A stretch of 64,000 bases of DNA, taken from the NCBI GenBank assembly GCA_951406725.2, contig OX597832.1:2914001-2978000 (forward strand), read 5' to 3'. Shown piece by piece: positions 11,443 through 63,200 of this stretch. The DNA comes from Octopus vulgaris. Taxonomy: Eukaryota. A program made the position numbers and the translations under genes. Position 1 is the first letter of the stretch, and each line of letters starts with the position of its first letter. The notes below the pieces were generated by a model. That model had not been told where the DNA came from and did no database searches. It saw nothing but the letters and a program-made list of their open reading frames with translations.

Positions 11443-11725
11443 GTTCTATATTTAAGAGATGAAGAATTATGTACATAATTTACATTTGACGAATATTTGT
11501 CCTCATCTTGTTTGTTGTTAACACAACGTTTCGGCTGATATATCTTCCAGTCTTCATCAAATGTCTTGCAGAAAATACCTTAGGAATGAGAATCCATCGA
11601 AAAATACCTCAGGAATGAGAATCCAGGTTTGAAATTTCCCCAAGACACCTGATGAAGGCTGGATATCAGCCGAAACATGTTAACAAACAAGATGAGGACA
11701 AATATCTGTCAAATGTAAATAATGT
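11443..11725. mobile_element. Inverted pair of PLE pseudo-LTRs (family 1), each with a minimal hammerhead motif
   Basis: Minus copy 11520-11566 (UUGAUGA...GAAACGUUGUGUU) and plus copy 11644-11682 (GACAC-CUGAUGA-AGGCUG..CAGCC-GAAAC); same family as 27885-28595, 47872-48216, 59821-60208. Confidence 0.8.
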
Positions 11726-12439
11726 CCAACTAAATGTGTTGAGTATTATTTTCTTTTGTTTATTACACACACATAATATTTATAAGGTTGAAATGGAGCA
11801 TTTGTCAATTTTGGCAACGATTGTTTCAGTTGTTTTATCAACTCTACTATTTATTCATTAAGTAACGTGTTAGTGGCTAAATATTTCACAGACAGTTGTA
11901 CCCTTCACATAATTCTCAAGTGGAATCCACTCTATGACAGTGTGTGACAATGCTGACTCTTTGAATCACTGGTACAGTCCATCCAACAGGCTTCCTCATA
12001 TTTTCTATCCCTGCCCATTTCACTCATAGGCTTGGATCCACTCAAGACTATGTTAAAAAACATTTATTGAAAATACTATGCAGTAGGACTGAAACAGGAT
12101 CTCACCTTAACCCCTCAGTGACATTTGTGTCCATTGTTAAGGAACTATTCAGGAGTTCAAACATTACTTGCATTAAGTTGTATTTCTCTATTTATTTTAA
12201 CAAAATGAATAATCCAGCAACACAGGATAGTAGTAGGTAACAGAAAAAGGTTTGGTTAAAAAAATAAAGAAATTGTATAAAATGCATGTTCCATTTTCCA
12301 ATGTTTGCCAAGGCAACATCGAAACACAAACATTTCTTTTTCTTTCAAATGACAGCTGAATATTAACATCTCCATTAAATGCTACAGAAATTTCTAGAAT
12401 TACAGAAAACAAAGAAAGAAGTAACAGTAATGCAATAAC

Positions 12440-27884: not shown

Positions 27885-28595
27885 GTATTTACATTATTTA
27901 CATTTGACAGATATTTGTCCTCACCTTGTTTGTTGTTAACACAACATTTCAGCTGATATACCCTCCTTCGAGTAAAACCACCAATAGAAGAGAATATGAC
28001 TAAAAACTGGGTGTACTCCATCCCATACAGCTGTGGTAGGTTATACAAAGGCAAAACATGCCACCCTCTCAAAATGAAGGTAAAGGAACATCGCAAAGCT
28101 GTGACACTAGGAGATATTGATAAATCGGGTATAGCTGATCATGTATGGTAAAATGGAGACCACCTGTGGGATGAATTTAAAATAATAGACAGAGAACACC
28201 ACTGGAAAATACAAAAACTAAAAGAAGCAGCACATATGATAGGGCACAACAACCTCCTAAGCAGACTGAGTGCAGATATGAATAGCATATGGGAAGGATA
28301 GGAAAATATTAGATTTATAAGCCCTAAAATTCACTCCATAACTGCTCACGGGCACATGGCGTAGTAGTTAAGAGCGCAGGCTACTAACTTCAAGAGTCAG
28401 AATAATAACATCAAAAAATACCTTAGGAATGAGAACTCAGGTTTGAAATTTCCCCAAGACACTTAATGAAGGCCGGAGGGTATATCAGCTGAAACATTGT
28501 GTTAACAACAAACAAAATGAGGACAAATTTCCATCAGATGTAAATAATTTAAATAATGTACATAATTTCTCATCTCTTAAATATAGAACTGTAAA
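27885..28595 (+). mobile_element. 5'-truncated Penelope-like element: inverted partial pLTR + GIY-YIG endonuclease remnant + 3' pLTR with tRNA-like cassette and hammerhead motif
   Basis: About 27993-28250 translates VYSIPYSCGRLYKGKTCHPLKMKVKEHRKAV..GDIDKSGIADHVW*NGDHLWDEFKIIDREHHWKIQKLKEAAH (Penelope GIY-YIG); tRNA-like 28350-28395; mutated hammerhead 28458-28503. Confidence 0.85.
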
Positions 28596-29739: not shown

Positions 29740-31669
29740 CAGTCAACTCTCACTACTATGCCAGTTTTGCGCGGTACCGGCCAAATAATAGACAAAAAAT
29801 TTTTACTAAAATCTTGCTAAAATCTCAACTCTCGCTACTATGCCACTTGTAAACTGAAGTGCATGCAACTTTTCGAAATTTTGTACTCCTACATTTTGTA
29901 ATCTTGTGGAAAAGTTCAGAAAGTAGCACACAATGTCAGCTCAGAAACGCAAGCGGACTGAGTTTACGCTGAAGGAAAAGAAGGAGATTATCGATGCTGC
30001 GAAAAACGAGCCGAACCAGTCTAAGCTGGCTAGAGAAATGAGCAAGAAATGGGGCATCGAAGTCAAGAGAACCACGGTGAAGGGCATTCTCAACAAAAAG
30101 GATGCAATCGAGGCAGCCATCAACATTGGAATTCCATCGAAGTGCATGAAGCTGACGCAATCTCACAACCCGAAGCTCAATGATGGCGTGCTAATGTGGC
30201 TGAAACAAGCAAGAGGACAGAATCTGCCAGTCAGTGGTGATCTTTTGAAGGAGAAAGCAATTAAACTGGCTGAGCTTATGCACATTCTGAACTTTATGGC
30301 AAGCGACGGTTGGCTAGACAATTTCAAAAATCATCACGGCATCACGTTCAAGACAGTGCAGGGCGAAGCTGGAGCGGTGAATTCTCAATCTCTTATTAAG
30401 TGGCAACAAGAGGTTCTCTGGCCATTGCTCAGGCAGTTTTCCGCGAAAGAGCGTGTTCAACTTGGATGAAACAGGAGTCTTTTGGCAACTACTTCCGAAC
30501 AAGACCATGGCTTTCAGGGGAGTGCGGTGCACAGGGGGAAAGAAAAGCAAGCAAAGAATCACTCTTTTGGTCGGAGCAAACTTAAGCGGCAGCGAGAAGC
30601 TACCTCTTCTGGTGATCAGAAATTCCAAGCAACCTCGTGCGTTTAAGAACAAATAGATTCCTGTGAAGTACAAGGCTAATTCGAAGGCGTGGATGACAGC
30701 AGAAACTTTTGAAGAAATGTTACAAACGTGGGACGGACAACTCAGGCAGCAAAACCGCAAAGTGTTGCTCTGTTTCGATAACTTCTTTGGTCACCCTTCT
30801 GACGTCCACTTGGACAACATCCAAATGCTCTTCTTTCCGCCCAACACGACAGCAAATTCCCAACCAATGGATTAAGGAATCATACAAAATCTTAAGCACC
30901 ATTACAAAAAGCTCTTGCTGTCCCGCCGTCTCGAAGCCATGGATGAAGGAAACGAGTTTAAATTTACATTGCTCGACTCCCTGCACGTTGCTTGGCGTGC
31001 ATGGGAGCAGGTCAGTGAATTGACGATTAAGAACTGTTTCGCGAAAGCCAAGTTTATTGAAGAGGAAATACAAATAGAGCCAGAGGATGCTGAGCTGCTC
31101 GAGATCTGGAAAGCTTTACCTCCCGAGGAAAAGACACATGAGAACGAAACAATTGAGCTGTTTGATTTTCTCAGTGCTGACGATTGCCTCGTAACTGGAG
31201 GATCTTTCACTCTAGAAGAAATAGCAAAGGAGGTAATGCATAACGAAGAGCCAGTGGAAAGTGAAGACGACGAGGTAATTGTGGAAGAGGAATACGTTTC
31301 GTTTGCAGATGCCCAGAGAGCATGGAGCACTATCTGAAAGTTTATGCAGCAGCAGAGCAGCGGAAAACCCAGCGTCATGCAGGCGTGTGATAGGCTAGAC
31401 AATGAAATGAATGAAATCCGCCGAAAGAAGATGCGTCAGCCGACAATTTTTGAGAGCTTCGGGATTAACTAAAAGCAATCTGAACTTAATAAACTTGGAT
31501 GTCTTCTTTTTACCATTGCATTGAACTTATTGGCCTTACTTCCTACCCTATGAATTTTTATTCGTATGTTCAGTAAATTTTTGGTTATGTAGTGTTTAGA
31601 TAACAGACCCTCGGTACTATGCCACTTTGGCTCAGTCCTGCAGGGTGGCATAGTAGCGAGAGTTGACTG
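29740..31669 (+). mobile_element. Full-length Tigger/pogo transposon (CENP-B HTH + DDE transposase, 29933-31471, disrupted by a frameshift and stops)
   Basis: 24-bp TIR CAGTCAACTCTCRCTACTATGCCA, TA TSD; motifs ASDGWLDNFK, FNLDETG, NSKAWMT, FDN, PPNTT..QPMD. Confidence 0.93.
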
Positions 31670-33867: not shown

Positions 33868-34148
33868 CTGTAGGTAAAATTTTAAAAGAAATTTAAGCAA
33901 AGGAAATTTTGACAAGAAGATTTTATTTTTCTTAGAAATATTAAATTTCTAAATATGAGAGATATGAGTGGTGGTGAAACGATAGAGTGGTTGTATACTG
34001 TCAACTCAACGTGACAGTCCCGTAAAGGGAATCACACCACCGCTATTTAGCCCTAGGAAGCATCAACGCTTCCTGTCGGCTTTGACACATTTCCTGTCTC
34101 CTTATATTTGCGAAGGGGAGACAAGCACCCCCACCAGCCAGGTCTGCA

Positions 34149-34194
34149 CCTAGAGACATGCATGTTTCTGAGTCTTGCACGTCATCAGTCTAGG
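34149..34194 (-). ncRNA. Type I hammerhead ribozyme motif (family 3) with a stem II mismatch
   Basis: Minus strand CCUAGA-CUGAUGA-CGUGCAAGACUCA-GAAA-CAUGCAUG-UC-UCUAGG. Confidence 0.75.
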
Positions 34195-34576
34195 GTAGCA
34201 AGGCTTGCTAGATGAAGATGTTTGCCAAGCCCTCACAAATTTCAGTGAAATCTATTCACTGATCACCAAAATTAGAAATATTAAATTTCTAAATATCTCA
34301 GAGAGATATGAGCGGTGGTGGAACGATAGAGCGGTTGTATACCGTCAAGCATTGATGCTTCCTAGGGCTAAATAATGGTGGTGTGATTCCCTTTACGGGA
34401 CTGTCACGTTAAGTTGACAGTATACAACCGCTCTATCGTTTCACCACCACTCATGTCTCTCTGAGATATTTATAAATTTAATATTTCTAATTTTGGTGAT
34501 CAGTGAATAGATTTCACTGAAAATATATATATTTGTGAGGGCTTGGCAAACATCTTCATCTAGCAAGCCTTGCTAC

Positions 34577-34622
34577 CCTAGACTGATGACGAGCAAGACT
34601 CAGAAACATGCATGTCTCTAGG
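34577..34622 (+). ncRNA. Type I hammerhead ribozyme motif (family 3)
   Basis: CCUAGA(34577-82)-CUGAUGA(34583-89)-C GAG CAAGA CUC A-GAAA(34603-06)-palindromic CAUGCAUG-UC(34615-16)-UCUAGG. Confidence 0.82.
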
Positions 34623-35549
34623 TGCAGACCTGGCTGGTGGGGGTGCTTGTCTCCCCTTCGCAAATATAATGACACAGGAAATGTGTCAAGGCCGACAGGA
34701 AGCACTGATGCTTCCTAGGGCTAAATAGCGGTGGTGTGATTCCCTTTACGGGACTGTCACGTTAAGTTGACAGTATACAACCGCTCCTTTTATTTTTCTA
34801 ATTTGAGATTAACCTATAAGATTATGTACAATCAGTTAGTTCTGTAAATATATTGCTTTGGAGCAATATTGGTGAAGGAAAACAAATAGCTCTAGAAGAT
34901 AATTACATGAAAAAAAAAAATACATAGTTGTAAAATAATTTTGCCTCGCTATGAAGCTATAAGGAATGACTGAACAATTTATTGCAACTGTTTAGGCAAT
35001 GTATTGCTACACTTTGCAACCCTTGAACCCCTTCTTAGCATCCTACTGATCTCCTGTGAAGCTTGCAAACTATAAAAAACTGGCTGCATACCATCTCCAT
35101 TACTCTACCACAATCCCCTCAAGTAGGTCTATGTATAAGAGACTGTATTGATCCCTCTTCTTCAATATACTTGTGTCCATCTTTCCACCAGCATTCATCA
35201 TCTCAATCACTTTAAAACTCATCCAGCTGTTCATATTTCTCATCTCACCACATATGATGCTCACTTGCTCACTCACTCCCACTTATTGTTCCACTGATAT
35301 TTATCCCTTCTTTTCTTCTATTTCTTCCATACTCCTTTCTGCACAGAAAAAAAAGCAAAAAAACAGCCATTCTGATGGGCTTACAGAGTTTCACGCCAAA
35401 TTTCACTCTCAAGGTTGAAGTGAGGCCACAATAGATGACACTTTGCCAAAGTGGCACCTTCTATGACAGAACTTGTAAGCCATACTTGTTAATGCTTATT
35501 GACTGATTTTAACAAAAATCTGTTTTAAAGAAGTTAAAAGAATACTCAC

Positions 35550-44197: not shown

Positions 44198-45977
44198 CTA
44201 AAATAAAAGAGGATTTAAGAACTGACTGTAAATTTTCATATTCTAAAATAATTGTTTAATGGACTTTAAAAAAATCAAATGAAGATAATTCAAAATAAAA
44301 TAAAAGAATGACCACAGTCACATGGCTGAAATGAGTAAAAGAATAATGCACTATTCCAAGAAGAATCAGCTGTAACCAAAATAATATCTTGCAAGATAGA
44401 GGCAAAGAATTTAGTAAATGCTCTCAAAAATAGTGTTGATAATTTTCTGAAGAATGAGAGACGGAAAAGTTGGAACAGGTCATAGAAAGAATAGAAACAA
44501 TTCTCCAAAAACCAAAAGGATGCAAAGTAAAATTCTGTTTTAGGAATATTGTTTTATTAATTGCTCTCTGACATAAATAGAAGACTGACTAGAATCGTAT
44601 TTGGAACAAAAGTTTTCAACTCAAAATGATAGATAATAAATGCTCCAGAAAACAAATACTTCTTATAAAACTGATTTGACCAATATCATTATTCTGGCCT
44701 CAAAAATAAGATGGTATTCAGTACAAAGTTTCAATATTACATTTTGAAAATTATGAACCCATATATACTATCATCATCATGTTAAAATGTAATGTGATAA
44801 CTTTTCCTTACAAATTAGCGAGGAAATAATGCCCACTGGGAATTTAGAGATAGATCCTAGATTCTGCTTACAGTCTCATAGAAACCATTAAAAGAATATA
44901 AGGCTGGCTTTATTCTGTCTTAGCTGTCAAAAATCAGTGAACTGAACTGATAGATGAACAAATGAGATAAATACCTAATAACAAATACATTCTTTATACT
45001 AATTAATAGTAAACAAACTTAACAGATATATATAGAGAGAGGGAGAGAGAGAGAAGCTTCATTTAGAGGGATGTGTAGATGCTTGAATGTTCTCAAAACA
45101 TGAGAGAAAGTATATGTGAGCTGAGAAGTAGACATATTCAATAACAGTTAGCTGTATGTTATAAGATGGTTACCATTCCTGATAATGAGACACTTGCAAG
45201 AAAAATACTGGATAAAAAGAAGTGAATTTATCTTACATATACTGATTTCAAGTTCCAATACTTTAGTTTGAATCAGGTTTGCAAAAGCAGGCTAAGAAGG
45301 ATGAACAGCTTGTGTTATTACCTAGGTCTACAAACAATACACATTCAACAATAAATTATGAGCTAGGTTTTCACTAAATGTCCTTATCCCCATTTTTATC
45401 TTTTCTTGAACAAAGTGTTTTAGGAGTGGATGTAATAAAGTACAAAAAGAGAAAAGATCAACTGTTTTAAGTGGAATAGTTTGCATATGCTAAGTTTAAA
45501 AATATAAAGACTATTGCAAAATTTTATCTCCAAAGCAGATGCACATTTAAGAGGTTTTTACACTAGGCAATGGTTGTCATGTTGAAATATATACAGTTTG
45601 AAGTAACATAAAAGGAAACGGAAGAATAAGACAGGAGATGTAGTGAAACCTTGCAGTCAACATAACCAGAGTTGAAAATATTGTTGCATTAAACAGCAGT
45701 AACTTCATTTTTGTTAAAGAGCATTGGTGTGTATTGGAAAGAGTTTCCTGTCAGTCAGGCTATTCATGCACTTAATTAATGGTGACAAGATTTTGGATTG
45801 TGAGTGTAGCTGGAAGACATCAGTTTCGATCATATGATGCTAGAGACAAGTGTGATAAGGCAGTTTGTTAAATCTTTGTGACAAGGAGTATGGCTACAGA
45901 TTTCTATATTTCAAGACAGTTGAGAGGAAGGGGATATAACTTATGTAGGTAACTTAATGCTAAGAGCAGAATCATTA

Positions 45978-46533
45978 ACCCCTATCTTGCCCAGGATATC
46001 AATCGTCTGGAAGCCGTTCAGTGACGTGCAACCAAAAGAATACCCTCCATCAGGCATTTGCCATATTCTGAATGCCTTACCTCCCTGGGCATGGATACAT
46101 TGAAACTCCGACGTCTGGCAGCTGACTTGGCAGACACCCATAAAATTATCAACCATCTTACAAACAATAACTCTGAGCACCTTTTCAAACTCCACCCGTC
46201 TAACACCCGTGGACATATTTACAAAGTCAGAAAACAGCACAGCTCCCATGACTTTCAGAAACATTTTTTCATGCTGAGAGTTGCTGAAGCATGGAACAAA
46301 CTGCCGGCATCGGTTGTTAGTTGTCGGAGCACTGCATCCTTCAAAACTTCCATGCTTTCTGAGATTCGCCAACACTACACCTGATTTTCTCTCCATACAC
46401 ACACAAGCATGTATCTGACTCATACACTGTTCACTTCCCAGACATTTGTACATTACTGCATACACTTTATACGCACTTTCTGACAAGTTGTGGTGCACCT
46501 GAGCACTGTATACAATAATTTCATTATTATATT
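45978..46533 (+). mobile_element. 5'-truncated CR1 LINE 3' end, inverted relative to the copy at 50503-53400
   Basis: Nearly identical to the reverse complement of about 50525-51045 (PYSECLTSLGMDTLKLRRLAADL...RVAEAWNKLP); ATT tail. Confidence 0.9.
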
Positions 46534-47871: not shown

Positions 47872-48216
47872 TACATTTGATGGCTATTTGTCCTCATCTT
47901 GTTTATTGTTAACACGTTTCGGCTGATATACCCTCCAGCCTTCATCAGGTGTCTTGGGGAAATTTTGAACCTTGGTTCTCATTCCTAAGGTATTTTTTGA
48001 TGTTATTATTATTATTATCATTATTCAGGTTACTGCCTGGAATCGAACTCAGAATCTTGGGGTTAGTAGCCCGTGCTGTTAACCCCTTTGCTATATGCCC
48101 GTGATGAAGGCTGGAGGGTATATCAGTCGAAACATGTTAACAACAAACAAGATGAGGACAAATATCCGTCAAATGTAAATAATGTACATAATTCCTCATC
48201 TTTTAAATATAGAACT
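47872..48216 (-). mobile_element. PLE pLTR family 1: full minus copy (tRNA-like head 48028-48100, hammerhead 47911-47953) + inverted partial copy
   Basis: Minus strand GGGCATATAGCAAAGGGGTTAAC..GGGCTACTAACCCCAAGATTCTGAGTTCGATTCCAGGCAGTAACC-(AAT)n-...GACAC-CTGATGA-AGGCTGGAGGGTATATCAGCC-GAAAC. Confidence 0.82.
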
Positions 48217-50502: not shown

Positions 50503-53400
50503 ATAATAATAATAATAATAATGAAAATATTGTATACAGTGCTCAGGTGCACCACAACTTATCAGAAAGTGCGTATAAAGTATATGCAGTAATGTACAAA
50601 TGTCTGGGAAGTGAACAATGTATGAGTCAGATACATGCTTGTGTGTGTATGGAGAGAAAATCAGGTGTAGTGTTGGCGAATCTCAGAAAGCATGGAAGTT
50701 TTGAAGGATGCAGTGCTCCGACAACTAACAACTGATGCCGGCAGTTTGTTCCATGCTTCAGCAACTCTTAGCGTGAAAAAATGTTTCCGAAAGTCATGGG
50801 AGCTATGCTGTTTTCTGACTTTGTAATGGAGTTTGAAAAGGTGCTCAGAGTTATTGTTTGGAAGATGGTTGATAATTTTATGGGTGTCTGCCAAGTCAGC
50901 TGCCAGACATCGGAGTTTCAATGTATCCATGCCCAGGGAAGTAAGGCATTCAGAATATGGCAAATGCCTGATGGAGGGTATTCTTTTGGTTGCATGTCGC
51001 TGAACGGCTTCCAGGCGATTGATATCCTGGGCAAGATAGGGGTTCCAGACTGGTGATGCAAATTCCAGGTGAGGTCTTACCATAGCTATATAAAGCCGCA
51101 GATAGATAGTCGGAGAGCGGCTCACAAAGGATTTGGTGAGTGATGCCAAGACACTCTCAGCCTTCTTGACAATTTTAGCGATGTGTTTTGTCCAACGCAA
51201 ATCACAGTCGACAATAACACCCAGGTCACGTTCACACGAAGACTTTTTGAGATTAGTGTTGTGGAGGGAGTAGGTGGACGCTGGGTTTCTCCTCCCAAAA
51301 TGCATGGTGGTACATTTGTCCACAGCCAGCTTGAGTTGCCAGTCCATGATCCACTGCTGCATTGTGTCCAGGTTTGCTTGCAATGGAGATCTACAGTGTA
51401 CAGGATCTGACCTCTTTATTTCGCGGTACAGCTTGATGTCATCTGCATATTTCAGCACTATGGCATTCTTTAAGTTGGCATCTATGTCATTAACATATGC
51501 AACAAATAAAAGGGGGCCAAGAACAGATCCCTTTGGTACACCAGATGTCATCTCATAGGGCGAAGAGTGCTGTCCTAGAACTGTGACAACCTCTTTTCGG
51601 CCGAAAATAAAGGACTTCAACCAGTTATAGAGTTCGCCTCTTACGCCCAACGCAGAGAGCTTCACCATAAGTCATTTGTGTGGCACAGAGTTAAAACCTT
51701 AGCAAAGTCCAGGTAAACCACATCCACCCAGGATCCGCGATCAGTGATTTGGGTAACGTCCTCAAGAAACTCGATGAGTTGATTACAGCAGCTGGAGTTA
51801 GGAATAAATCCAAATTGTGACGGCTGGATGAGGCTGTGAGACTTCCAGAAGTTCCAGAAGGTTTCTCTGATACAGGATTCCATCAGTTTGGCAATGCAGC
51901 TAGTAAGACTAACAGGGCAATAGTTGACAGGCGATGTGCGGTCACCTTTTTTGAACAGAGGGATAACACTGGCAGTTTTCCACTGCTCTGGAGTAACACC
52001 ATTGTCAAGACAGAATTGGAAGAATAGAGAAAGTTGGCTTAGAAGAAAGTACCCACAGCGTTTGAGAAGTAGGTATGTAACACCATTGAGACCAGGAGAG
52101 GCATAGTTGCGTTTATTCTTAAGGTGGCATAGCATTGCTGGTGTAAATTGCATAGTAGATATAGAGTCCGATGTCAGTGGTGATGAAGATGGAACATTTT
52201 GGTCTTCGACAGTAAAGAAGCTGGCATAGCATCCAGCAATGATTTCTGCACATTCTTTGGGATTGCCAGTAATCTGTCCTGTGTGGGAATTGCGAAGGGG
52301 ACCAACTGGAGAGTGAGGTCTCTGCTTTGAGTGTACATACTTCCAGAACACTTTGCTGTCAGGGTTGGTTGCGATGCATTGTTCAAATTAAGCACTGCCT
52401 TTTTTGTCACCTGCTTGAGGTGGTTGGCTGACCTATTGCACTTTTTCCTGTTGATCTCTGATTTGTGTAATTTGTATTCCTGTTCAGCATTACGGCGTTC
52501 TTTCCTGGCAAATCGGACTGCTGCAGTCTCCCATATTGCACTATTGGGTGGTTTTTTGTGCTTGCGTGGTACTGATGCTGCACATGCCACCCATATTGAA
52601 TTCAGAATGTTCTGGAGTATAGTGTCCACATCTCCAGAGGCATAAAATTCGAGCCAGTTTGGGTGTTGTAGCTCAGTACAATAAGAGTTCCAGTCTGTTT
52701 TATTCCAGTCAAAGCGGGCAGTCTGAAGATGGTTGTGGTTTTTGTTACAACCAATCAGAGACAAGTCGGCCATGATCATGGAATGATCAGTGTCACCTAA
52801 AGGTTCTTCAGTAGTGACACTAATGATTGTTTCAGGAGAAGAAAGTAGCAGATCCAAAGTGTTGTTACCCCTTGTGGGGGGAGGTAATGACTTGGGACCA
52901 ATTTGAATTCAGCACCAGTTCAAGGAAATCGTCTGCACTTTGCGGCCAACGGAAGGCCTCCCAGTCAATCTCAGGGAAATTGAAGTCGCCCGCAATATAA
53001 ACATATGCGGTTGTTTTCATGGCAGCAGCTCTGAGGATATCAAAAGGCTGTGCGTCTTGACGGTAATTTGGGGGGCGGTAAACAACTCCAAGCAGAAGTG
53101 TTGACATGGTCATGTGTATATTGCAGAAAAATACTTCCTGCTGAGATTGGTTCAAATCATCACAGGGGATTGCCGATAGATTTGATCGAACATAAATCAT
53201 CACACCCCCTCCACGGCGATTAATGCAGTCTTTGCGGAACAGGTTGTAGCCGGCTATGCTGAAAACTCCATCACAGAGTGCAGAAAGTGCCCATGTTTCC
53301 GTGACTGTTATGAAATCTGGGTTGATACTTTTGATGTAAGAATCAAAAAGATGCACCTTGTTGCATAAACTACGGGCATTCAAGGACAGCAGTTTGTATC
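50503..53400 (-). mobile_element. CR1-clade LINE ORF2 (APE + RT), frameshifted, with an (ATT)n tail
   Basis: NARSL, VTETW, GDFNFP.IDW, LGDTDH, SQFGF, YLDFAK, SGVPKGSVLGPLLF, KYADD. Confidence 0.93.
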
Positions 53401-58400: not shown

Positions 58401-59820
58401 AAGAGGAAGGCATGTAAAATCAATTTGTAAATCGTTTATTTTTGTAGCTCACTCATCTTCTGTTCTTCCACATATTTTTCCTATTATTTTTTGTGTATAA
58501 ACATAATAAAAGTAAATTTGATGGAAATAAATGGTTGCTACAGTTTGTCTTCTTATTTTGCATACATATGTAGTGGGAGGTGAAGCAAAAGGTGTTGTTG
58601 ATGTAGCAGATGAAGATAGGCGTGTTGACAACATCAAAGAAAACAACGAAGAAAGCATCAGATTGTAGTTTAAATAATTTATTTGATCGACACTTGCATT
58701 TACGTGTTGGATACACAAGGAATGCTGCTACATGACGTTACCAACTTGCTTCGAGTTGGTGAAGTAAAAAATGAACGGGAGAAATAGTGTCGATGTGATG
58801 AGGTAGAACTGGGTGAGTTTTGTGTCTGAGCTCGTCATTTGGTCATGTCAGTTTATGTTCTGCAACTGTTACCGTGTAGTGTTGTTCATGCTGAATATGT
58901 AGCTTTCTGTTGGCTGCTTGACTGTTTGTCTCCTACTGGTTGTCTGCTCATCTGTCATGTGTCTGTATTTATAATCATCATCTTAGCTAGAAGAACAGAC
59001 ATACCATAGGAATAATTTCTACCTATGTAGGTCACCTGTTGTCCACTTGAACCTTAAATGACACAGCTCAGGTTGGAGGTCAAGTGGAAATCCATCTATC
59101 ACTTTTTGACAGGACAGAAATTTCTTTCGCGCCTGTTCGACCAGTGGTGGATCAGGCAGGTTTTGAATCTCAGCTTGGAAAAAGGAAGTGTTAATTTTTA
59201 CACAACCTCCCTTCCAGTGAGAAAACCAAAGAGATCGAATGATACAGATGCGTGTGATATTGAAAACATGTGATTTGTTGTGTAATGCAGAAAATGGATA
59301 CAGTGCTATTTACAAACAAATGAATACATGTCAAAAACATGTGAAGTGAAAGAAATGAAAAAAAATGTAAAGCAAAAAAATCAATGTTCAGAGTTGGTGT
59401 GTGCAATATATGTTAGGCAATGTGTATATGCCTAGGCAGAAGCATAAATGTAATATGCTGGTGCATTGAAAGAGATATGCAACTCCATTGATTATGCGAC
59501 CCACTAGGTCTAATGGAGGTAAGTTGTTTTGCAGTGGTGAGGAGAGTAAACATGATAGCACACATGAAAATATGAGGGGTGCAAGTGTGTGTAAGCATAC
59601 AGGTGTGATGTAGAGCAAAACATGTGTTCATGGAAGAAAATGTGATTTTACAGAAATATGAAAAAGTTAATGCAAAAAGTTTGTTGGTGAAATGTTCAGT
59701 CAGTTCAATTAGTAGAACAATGTTAAAAAAAATGTTTTTCATTGATACAGAAAAACGTTTGTTTGTTTTTTGTTTATACAAAATGTTCTTTTCTATATTT
59801 AAGAGATGAGGAATGATGTA

Positions 59821-60208
59821 CATTATTTACATTCAACAGATTCATCCTCATCTTGTTTGGTGTTAACACAAAGTTTCGGCTGATATACACTCCAGCCTTC
59901 ATCAGGTGTCATGGGGAAATTTCGAACCTGGGTTCTCATTCCTAAGGTATTTTTTGATGTTATTATTATTATGGTGTAGTGGTTAAGAGCGTGGGCTACT
60001 AACCCCAAGATTCCGAGTTCGATTCCAAGCAGTGACCTGAACAATAACAATAGTAATAATAATAATATCGAAAAATACCTTAGGAATGAGAACTCAGGCT
60101 CAAAATTTCCCCAAGACACCCAATGAATGCTGGAGGGTATATTAGCCAAAACGTTGTGTTAACAACAAACAAGATGAGGACAAATACCTATTGAATGTAA
60201 ATAATGTA
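59821..60208. mobile_element. PLE pLTR family 1 inverted pair: minus hammerhead 59865-59910; plus copy with tRNA-like cassette 59971-60037 and mutated hammerhead 60115-60160
   Basis: A box TGGTGTAGTGG (59972-82), B box GAGTTCGATTCC (60015-26); minus GACAC-CUGAUGA-AGGCUGGAGUGUAUAUCAGCC-GAAA-CUUU-GUGUU. Confidence 0.82.
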
Positions 60209-63200
60209 AATGTTTTTTGTTGTGTTTTGGTTTGATGTGAGTGATGCAGAAACACTTGGGTTATGTATGTCAAAATTGTTCATAACCAAAAAAAAATTTG
60301 TTTTTATTTGTTGAAGTGGACATTTCACTTGAAATGATGGGTAACTGAAAAGTTTGTAGTTACTCGAAAGATTTGAACAAATCTTGCAGGCCATTGAATT
60401 GTTCTTCCCTATTTGGTGTGCCAGGTTGTGCAGAATCTGAGGTGTTTGTGATGGGTGAAGCTGAAATTGTTGAGTCCATTTGAGGAACAGCAGGAAATGA
60501 AAGCAAGTCCTCTTGCTTTCAACGAATGCCTTTTTTAAGTGATTGACAGAGGCAGTATTTCATTTTTCTCCAATATTGAGAACAAAATACTTTGCTTTAC
60601 ATTGTAGGGCCTGGAATATGGTGGCTGAAGTTGAGAAGATATTCCATCATTTCTAATGAAAACATGTGTCTAAGTATTGACGTCCTTTGGGATAAGCGAA
60701 GTGATGTTCTGTTGTCTGGGACCTGCAGGGGACAAATGCGATATAGATGTCTGTAAGAGGTGAACCTATCTTGCTGGGTCTGGAAAGACTTGTGGAGAAA
60801 CAGAATCGATCATCTGTCCATGTAAGGCGAGTGCCGTGCCATAAACCAGTTCAGCCAGAGTATGTCCAACTCTCTCGTTAACCATGGATCGCATACCAAG
60901 GAGGACGAGTGGAAGATATTTCAACTAGTTGGAGCAGTCTGGATACACTTTTATAGCTGCCTTAAGTTGGTGGTGAAAACGTTCGACCATACCATTTGCT
61001 GCAGGGTGATAAGCTGTCGTGCAGGTGCGTTTACACCCAAGACAAGTCAGCTCAGTGAAAAGGTGAGAATCGAACTGACGTCCTCTTTTGGTAGTAATCG
61101 TCAACACAGGTGAGTGCAATTGTTGGAAGGAGGCAAGGGTCGAACAATGTTGATATGCATGTGTTGAAAACGTGCATCAGGAGTTGCAAAGGAACTGAAG
61201 GGAGATTTAATGTCGGTGGACCTTTGCTTTTTGGTACGCGACACAAATCCTAGTCCATTCATGACTGTCCCTGTTGATGTTGGACCACATGAAACAGTCA
61301 ATATCAGCCTTTGTGAGGCGTGGATACCTAGATGTTTAGGGAATGCAAAGCAGAGAAAACGTCATGTCTTTGTTTTTGTAGCACATATGGACAATCATGA
61401 CTATTGGAGGTCTCACACTAAATATAGCCTGTAGTAGAGGGTATCAGGGATTGCTGAAATTTCATAAATGACGAATTCTGGAGCTGTAGTAGTAGTTCTT
61501 AGTCATTTTGTTCGTCAGCTGCAATCTGCTGGAGATCAATAGTAGCGATGGTGTGGATAGCGTTAAGCTCCATGCATGACAGGGCATCAGCTGCAGAGTT
61601 GTTCGCACCCTTGATGTGGCAAATGTCTGTTGTATACTGTGTTATGAAGTCTAGATGTCAGACTTCCCTGGGTGAGTGATGATCAGGCTTGGCATTGAAT
61701 GCATAACCCGGTGGCTTACGGTTGGTATAGTTAGAGAAAACGCAACCTTTTAGCATGTGTCGAAAATGCTTGACAGCGAGATACACTGCCAATAATTCTC
61801 AACCGAAGGTACTGTACTTAGTCTTGGTAGGTTTTAAGCACTTGGAGAAGAAGGGTACAGGTTGCCAAATACTGTCAGTGAGTTGTTGGAGTACACCTCT
61901 AACTCCTGAATTGGATGCATCAACTAGTACACACAGTGGGGTGTCTGGTTTGGGATACACTAGCATGGTAGCATTGGATAACACTTTTTACAAGTCAGCA
62001 AAAGAAGCAAGTCTTTCTTCACTCAAGGCAATGTTTGTATTTTTGCTTGTTTGGTGTCGCAGCAAATCTGTGAGTGGTTGGGCTGTCTCTGCACAGTGAG
62101 GGTAGAAATTCAAGAGGCCAAGAAATTCCCACAATTTGTGAAGATGATGTGTCCAAGAAAATGAAGGGGCGCAACTCTGAATGAACATTTGCTGGCATTG
62201 ATAACAATATCATATTCGCACAGGCATTAGAATAGCAGGTGCAGGTGTTGTTCATGCTCTTCATCTGAGCTACTGGCCACGAGTAAGTCATCTATGTATG
62301 CATAGACAAAAGGCAAACCTCTGGTAACTGTGTCTCTAAAACGGAACGTCTGTGCTGCGTTGCATAAACTGAAAGGCAAATATTCTGCTGCAGGGATTTA
62401 ATTGTAAGCTTGCACAAGGTCGATCTTTGAAAAGATGCAAGCTCCATGCAGCGAGCTAGAAAAGTCCTGTAGATGAGGGATGCAATTACAGGAGGCACTC
62501 GGGCTTCAGGACTGCCTTCTAAATCGACGCGATCGGCTGCTGCTTTGACAGTGGATACCAAGCAATAAGGATTGTATCTGTGATGCCTGCTGCATCATCA
62601 ATGAGCGCAAGTCCGAAATTTCAGAACCACTGGTGAATGCCCTGTTGACCGTGGATGAGTTCGCTGCTGGTTTGTGTCCCAATAGAGCCATACTGTGACG
62701 ACTAATTTTGCGGTTCTGACTTAGTGATGTGTGATGTTAAGGTTGTCATTCTTCATCAGGGTTACCAAATGTAGTGAGATATGAAGCAAAAGGTGTTGTT
62801 GATGTAGCAGATGAAGATAGGCATGTTGACGACATCAAAGAAAACAATGAGGAAAGCATTAGATTGAGGTTTAAATAATTTATTTGATTGACACTTGCAT
62901 TTACGTGTTGGATACACAAGGAAAGCTGCTACATGATGTTACCAACTTGCTTTCAGTTGACGAAGTAAAAAATGATCAGGAGAAATACTGTGTTGATGTG
63001 ATGAGGTAAACCTGGGCATGTTTTGTGTGTGTGCATTGGTCATTTGGTTGTGTCTGTTTATGTTCTGTTGCTGTGTTACTCTTTTACTCGTTTCAGTCAT
63101 TTGACTGCGGCGATGCTGGAGCACCGCCTTTAGTTGAACAAACCGACTCCAGAACTTATTCTTTGTCAATCTAGTACTTATTCCATTGGATTCTTTTGAT

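Follow-up and report, generated by a model that had tools for sequence, protein, structure and literature searches.

A Penelope-like retrotransposon of Octopus vulgaris carries a tRNA-derived cassette in its pseudo-LTR and may start its RNA there

Several described systems share part of their organization with the octopus repeat analyzed here. The Penelope/Poseidon element PAc of Anolis carolinensis, according to its published description, consists of one ORF for a reverse transcriptase (RT) with a C-terminal GIY-YIG endonuclease, has pseudo-LTRs (pLTRs) in partial tandems and inverted 5′ copies, carries a minimal hammerhead ribozyme over the ORF start and shows two 3′ ends (the 'tail') within the ORF start, features that we also find in the octopus element (PMC11167929). 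In vitro, RT was found to start internally at two sites that account for the tail, and ribozyme mutants were without effect on insertion (PMC11167929). A small-RNA-derived Pol III promoter in a terminal repeat, as proposed here for octopus, is reported for the TRIMp3 elements Cassandra, Helenus and Ajax, which are non-autonomous LTR elements of <1.3 kb; insertion of a SINE into the repeat was proposed as their origin, and the autonomous partners of such Pol III-driven TRIMs were argued to need Pol II (PMC10886601). The order of a Pol III promoter and then a type I hammerhead recurs in the SINE-like SM-alpha/Sj-alpha repeats of Schistosoma, non-coding tandem repeats that are freed by cleavage (PMC6765202). 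Lastly, animal non-LTR retrozymes are likewise short hammerhead sequences related to the pLTRs of Penelope-like elements (PLEs); they form head-to-tail arrays by definition, and no tRNA promoter is mentioned in the available text of that report (bioRxiv 10.64898/2026.07.22.740005).

The window, a stretch of 64,000 nucleotides of Octopus vulgaris DNA, contains four loci of a single repeat family, each an inverted pair, as the initial annotation had stated; the pairs face outward. A tRNA-like cassette, which had been assigned to all four loci, is present at three of them and missing from both arms at 11 kb. The locus placed at 59821-60208 is a real inverted pair, and its extent was refined to 59791-60211. 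The features of the four loci are listed below, with coordinates of the window.

59971..60211, plus strand: pLTR arm of the 60 kb locus, with the cassette from about +7, (AAT)n, ATG, hammerhead and a short tail
59972..59982, plus strand: A box (TGGTGTAGTGG) of the tRNA-Arg-derived cassette in the 60 kb plus arm
60017..60026, plus strand: B box (GTTCGATTCC) in the 60 kb plus arm
60086..60088, plus strand: first in-frame ATG of the element ORF (presumed start) in the 60 kb plus arm
60115..60160, plus strand: minimal type I hammerhead of the 60 kb plus arm, core mutated (CCAATGA, CAAAA), predicted cut after 60155
59791..59971, minus strand: inverted arm of the 60 kb locus without cassette, with (AAT)n, ATG, hammerhead (59910-59865, core intact, CUGAUGA/GAAA) and a long tail
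27968..28343, plus strand: 5′-truncated ORF end of the 28 kb locus, encoding the GIY-YIG endonuclease and interrupted by one in-frame stop, then a short 3′ UTR
28344..28592, plus strand: 3′ pLTR of the 28 kb locus, with the cassette (+1 at 28350, A box 28357-28367, B box deleted), a mutated hammerhead (28458-28503) and a long tail
27886..27966, minus strand: inverted, 5′-truncated arm of the 28 kb locus, with the 3′ half of the hammerhead and a short tail
47872..48102, minus strand: pLTR arm of the 48 kb locus, beginning at cassette position -3, with a degenerate A box (48093-48083), the B box at 48048-48039, and a hammerhead with intact core and deleted cleavage triplet
48102..48216, plus strand: inverted arm of the 48 kb locus, with the hammerhead from the core onward and a long tail
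11443..11574, minus strand: truncated arm of the 11 kb locus without cassette, with hammerhead and long tail
11570..11726, plus strand: truncated arm of the 11 kb locus without cassette, with ATG region, hammerhead and short tail

No arm in the window has cassette and hammerhead both intact, in agreement with the earlier observation that no copy is free of mutations. The window also harbors long inverted repeats of 95–97% identity (45977-46530 / 50515-51044 and 33957-34786), of which the pair 45977-46530 / 50515-51044 encloses the 48 kb locus, and an open frame of 180 aa at 29926-30470 on the plus strand which, by eye, is like the N-terminus of a pogo/Tigger transposase.

Judged from its sequence, the repeat is the pLTR of a Penelope/Poseidon-type element encoding RT and GIY-YIG. 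By walking outward from the GIY-YIG fragment of the window through genome copies, we obtained a Penelope-type ORF of ~850 codons with an RT followed by a GIY-YIG domain at the C terminus. The order of the unit is ORF stop, 50-nt UTR, 73-nt cassette, (AAT)n, a stretch of about 25 nt, ATG, hammerhead and the remaining ORF. Hence the cassette also lies directly upstream of the ORF start, which the initial annotation had overlooked, along with the overlap of hammerhead and ORF. The spacer of (AAT)n is expanded and broken by other repeats in several copies, among them L213:5700 and L338:3650. The hammerhead occupies part of the first 24 codons, with its predicted cut 70 nt past the ATG (hand count), and one natural copy (L179) has no stop codon in this frame for at least 100 codons from the ATG on, the ribozyme included. 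Hallmarks of EN+ Penelope-like elements were found: partial tandems of pLTRs, inverted 5′-truncated copies and a tail that matches the ORF start, an optional trait of 30–40 bp in this group.

With regard to the protein, the RT domain matched Pfam RVT_1, and RT and GIY-YIG motifs are present in natural copies; no Pfam match was obtained for the GIY-YIG pieces of the window or for two longer open stretches. The 918 homologues include a Poseidon-like protein of Anolis (P0102, 31% identity over 291 aa), and the closest database relatives are unnamed proteins (P0001-P0011), 53–72% identical; the placement as Penelope/Poseidon is one by pairwise identity. The GIY-YIG fragment at 28 kb is 56% identical over 48 aa to the Penelope-type protein P0005. 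As a separate observation, residues 17–36 of P0005, a relative that is 59–62% identical, retain the pattern TPD..G.....PKRCV, which is the translation of the hammerhead, and the overlap of ribozyme and ORF would thus be common to more than one family. Based on 13 loci in 1 Mb of fixed-interval stretches, there are roughly 36,000 loci genome-wide, within a wide margin, and the RT segments of 41 copies have a mean identity of 90.1%. The element is present in other species as well, under six organism labels. A second PLE family was sought as a same-genome control, and all of the 30 best loci for a distant PLE query belonged to the present family.

The resemblance of the cassette to tRNA-Arg(ACG), noted previously, was confirmed by its colinear alignment with the genome's own tRNA-Arg(ACG) genes, in which 48 of 74 columns agree and the score is 64 (mean 14 and maximum 39 in 2000 shuffles). 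tRNA-Thr(AGT) was considered as a source as well; the pattern search returned only Arg(ACG) genes and copies of the family. Both the A box (TGGCGTAGTGG) and the B box (GTTCGATTCC) of the cassette match the consensus at tRNA spacing. The cloverleaf itself is decayed, with 2/7 pairs in the acceptor stem and 3/5 in the T stem; neither ARAGORN nor Rfam scored the cassette as a tRNA, and a functional tRNA gene was rejected on account of this undetected cloverleaf. Elsewhere in the genome, at G000:C2:211,893,000-211,907,000 (L378-L393), tRNA-Arg(ACG) genes are repeated in tandem at intervals close to 207 bp. In the 3′ pLTR of one copy (L337), the A-box region reads exactly as tRNA-Arg(ACG) over 15 nt, unlike the family, which suggests a template switch or conversion with a real tRNA.

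That the cassette is part of the element, and not a stray SINE, had been deduced from the 28 kb locus. It is indeed integral to it, because it follows the ORF in 11/11 RT-anchored copies that reach the ORF end (from the 30 loci found with the RT query, one being the query's own locus) and because it stands at both ends of complete copies; the latter arrangement, both pLTRs carrying the cassette, was seen in L395 and L398, i.e., in 2 of 10 extended copies. When the ORF start served as the query, the cassette was upstream in 5/30 loci. In 69 of 76 cassettes the pLTR body comes next, while the remaining 7 stop in (AAT)n or in a partial body, and a free SINE with the cassette as its head was not seen among these 76. 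The absence of a T4 run between cassette and ribozyme, described initially for a clean copy, extends to 48 of 52 ORF-linked copies. The short copies are 250–290-nt pieces, pLTR plus tail, of the autonomous element. A separate tRNA-derived SINE was rejected as the identity of the repeat, since the sequence is the pLTR of coding copies and both hammerhead variants occur in solo and in ORF-linked copies; a non-LTR retrozyme was also rejected, the mapped copies being single or inverted and not a head-to-tail array. An unrelated, very young SINE of ~380 bp, with a different tRNA-like head, occurs in many contigs of G000 (L062-L090, around 1380-1760), with 39 copies at 98–100% identity among those listed and 1,322 candidates. 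In other organisms, none of the 23 PLE loci (among 108) that bear the same bulged minimal hammerhead had an A/B pair in the 450 nt preceding it, in a search whose positive controls recovered 3/4 cassettes and 2/4 hammerheads and in which many contigs were short.

The hammerhead is of the minimal type I defined for PLEs (PMC4209133), with a CUGANGA/GAAA core, G10.1-C11.1, a short stem I, an additional nucleotide before stem II and an ACGU palindrome (15.2-16.2). Stem I, of 5 bp, and stem II, of 6 bp, appeared in the minimum-energy fold of all three natural copies folded; Rfam did not score the hammerhead of the repeat, and cofolding did not give an active dimer. Two variants, differing at the free core position 7, make up most of the 144 pattern matches (72 CUGAUGA, 40 CUGAAGA). 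The cleavage triplet is GUU, which is a weak one for hammerheads, and about 20 of these matches are without three bases there, in frame.

Self-cleavage had been proposed as the source of the 3′ end, and the copies do not bear this out: of the 108 arms whose anchor lay solely upstream of the cut site, 106 extend past it. Measured from an anchor 4 nt after the cut, 53 of 110 aligned arms end at 40–59 nt and 48 at 70–89 nt, i.e., in clusters about 45–65 and 75–95 nt beyond the cut, inside the ORF start and about 30 nt apart, and the tail sequence runs on into the ORF. These 3′ ends correspond to the known Penelope tail. A pile of 5′ ends at the hammerhead cut was not found (2/153 arms begin within 1 nt), and a slight excess of arm starts 0–6 nt from the cut is possibly artefactual. 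Because arms pass the cut and few begin there, neither end of the inserted copies is set by the hammerhead, whose role is probably optional or regulatory.

We also monitored how copy number changes along the unit. Genome-wide counts of exact 16-mers were 1,022 for GIY, 1,291 for the UTR, 6,712 for the cassette and 10,389 for the body (6, 1, 2 and 1 for reversed 16-mers as controls). The step from GIY to UTR was 1.3-fold over 153 nt and that from cassette to body 1.5-fold; across the 63 nt with the 5′ edge of the cassette it amounted to 5.2-fold, or about 7.7-fold after a match-rate correction with exact-match rates of 0.58 and 0.39. The 5′ ends of 77 cassette arms, relative to tRNA +1, lay at -8..-1 in 43 cases, at +1..+13 in 26 and at -19 in 1, and 7 arms ran on; these arms come from loci not selected on ORF sequence, apart from one ORF-selected run-on row, some pairs are the two arms of one locus, and three rows were mis-anchored. 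The ends cluster 11–14 nt ahead of the A box, spread over about 20 nt. In tRNA-type promoters, transcription typically starts 10–20 nt before the A box. The junctions of 73 arms fell into 28 palindrome fold-backs, 20 with other inverted element sequence, 17 with foreign flank (10 of them at -4..-8, by eye), 7 run-on and 1 jump. In two copies, L020 and L103, ORF sequence switches abruptly to -6, the pattern expected of an RT that reaches the end of its template. The 12-nt palindrome, TGCCC-AC-GGGCA, spans -7..+5, and in reads and contigs of other runs the same fold-back at L362:689 corresponds, by hand arithmetic, to position -7. G(-6) comes after a T; the A box lies 13 nt downstream of it and a TATAAG, overlapping the ORF stop, 28 nt upstream. 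RNA reads, which were unstranded, were equal on both strands, tracked genomic copy number and gave no read-start pile at the cassette, so that they are silent on expression. In line with the initial placement of the element's 5′ end at the cassette, the 5′ ends of the copies point to one defined start a short way upstream of it. Since the counts drop 5- to 8-fold and the 5′ ends pile up there, an RNA start near the cassette is likely, and we consider a discrete start near -6 very probable.

The reading that we favor, and regard as probable, is that the element RNA is started by Pol III at the captured tRNA-derived cassette. Starting near -6, this RNA would serve the element RT, which would begin cDNA internally at the two tail sites, as it does in vitro for the anole Poseidon. 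At the tail nearest the RNA 5′ end, the RT would run off at the start site after 250–290 nt and leave short pLTR copies; the palindrome at the RNA 5′ end would often let the cDNA fold back, giving inverted pairs, and an RT start at the tail of the downstream repeat would give ORF-bearing copies. Copies across the junction of ORF end and cassette imply that longer tandem or circular templates existed too. A start by Pol III is favored by the match of both boxes to the consensus despite decayed acceptor and T stems and by the presence of the 5′ boundary also without fold-back; on the other side stands the TATAAG at -28, whose spacing equally fits Pol II. Moreover, with copies ~90% identical the source is old, and the intact boxes may only reflect a recent capture of a SINE head.

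A further set of analyses concerned TTTT on the sense strand. The 116 copy segments (109 kb) that cover the 2.69-kb unit have no TTTT site in common (no site occurs in more than 3 of 30–47 copies), while they share 14 TTT and 31 AAAA sites. Four natural open stretches that tile 820 codons contain no T4 run vs 4.48 expected (synonymous permutation, P = 0.0028), with TTT at expectation in the ORF (18 vs 16.5). TTTT ranks 2nd of 256 four-mers by depletion, so the result is an a-priori one that would fail a 256-fold correction. PLE ORF segments of other organisms (n = 72) had no depletion of T4 (490 vs 437), 0/17 long ones being without T4, and the family copy L336 had 3 vs 2.8 expected. Twelve TE-like ORFs, picked by eye and tallied by hand, gave 11 vs 17, by which the expectation for the element would fall to about 3 (P about 0.05). 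In an 863-codon LINE ORF on the minus strand of L219, with endonuclease and RT by eye, we counted 1 TTTT vs 4.3 expected (P = 0.045). Among tails, 8/96 contain TTTT, including 2/27 of those continuing into the ORF. The lack of TTTT is a hint, suggestive only, of Pol III read-through of the whole ORF. That Pol III transcribes the entire ORF-bearing element end to end, on a 2.7-kb sense strand purged of TTTT, and that the uncapped RNA is translated, we put forward tentatively, as a possibility that we doubt more than we trust; jointly with it, and just as tentatively, the same Pol III RNA might yield, via internal RT start, the tens of thousands of SINE-like short copies.

The same RNA start could instead belong to Pol II, directed by the TATA-like box at the ORF stop or by an internal promoter, with the cassette as a captured SINE head of no promoter role, which we hold to be unlikely. 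Known PLE promoters are in the pLTR, and their transcripts are polyadenylated (PMC8557442). D. virilis Penelope is a precedent for an internal Pol II promoter, a capped RNA would make translation easy to explain, the TATAAG at -28 would be its box, and the unrelated LINE ORF is TTTT-poor as well. Against this, the start has the spacing typical of tRNA-type promoters, A and B boxes are both perfect, 69 of the 76 cassettes run into the pLTR body and none was seen to head a free SINE, and TTTT is absent from an ORF in which TTT is at expectation. It is less probable again that no RNA ends at the cassette and that RT, copying a tandem or circular RNA of greater length, is halted by the palindrome or by what is left of the tRNA structure and folds back there. 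The 28 fold-backs mean that stalling can explain part of the 5′ step, the commonest loose end in reads is at -7 with fold-back sequence, and copies such as L395, which cross the junction, required longer templates; however, about 10 direct flank junctions and the two template jumps lie at -4..-8 without fold-back, the hairpin has just 4–5 bp, and the cloverleaf is decayed.

The initial model of a mobile, SINE-like unit of ~200 nt from the Pol III start to the hammerhead cut is now highly improbable: such an RNA might be produced as a by-product of cleavage, and the Schistosoma repeats do join the two parts (PMC6765202), but nearly all arms pass the cut, hardly any begin at it, and solo and ORF-linked copies have both variants in common. 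Excision of the tRNA-like cassette from a longer transcript by RNase P would suit its colinearity with a whole tRNA and is scarcely credible, given that 5′ ends peak at -7..-3, with 1/77 at +1, and that so little of the acceptor stem is retained.

As to the meaning of a Pol III start at the cassette, Pol II is the enzyme expected for autonomous retrotransposons, and a coding PLE with a tRNA promoter, if true, would run counter to this and let long Pol III transcription and cap-independent translation be tested in a natural case; only a very small number of PLE families have had their promoters studied. Whichever polymerase is involved, the copies lend genomic support to internal RT initiation in PLEs. 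The fixed RNA 5′ end together with internal RT start would account for the roughly tenfold excess of short pLTR copies over coding ones, the palindrome at the 5′ end gives a specific way in which the inverted pairs common among PLE insertions could form, and a SINE-like repeat can be no more than a terminal repeat that belongs to an autonomous element of its own.

Our literature search found no PLE with a tRNA-derived promoter, while Repbase, Dfam or the supplements of PLE papers may already hold such a consensus; a term search of the PMC13282606 supplement returned family totals only, with hammerheads unmentioned in the part searched. Compared with the systems introduced at the outset, the PLE hammerhead, the tail and the inversions are of a known kind, and what appears to be new is a putative tRNA-type promoter that is integral to the element and is accompanied by a start signature to match. 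The octopus element differs from PAc in the tRNA-derived A/B-box cassette at the 5′ end of its pLTR and in the sharp boundary there, neither of which is mentioned for PAc in the available text (PMC11167929). In contrast to the non-autonomous TRIMp3 elements, it has the cassette in the coding PLE itself (PMC10886601). Unlike the SM-alpha/Sj-alpha repeats, its copies are dispersed, inverted and attached to an ORF, with ends not set by cleavage, and its short copies are dispersed singles and inverted pairs where non-LTR retrozymes form arrays.
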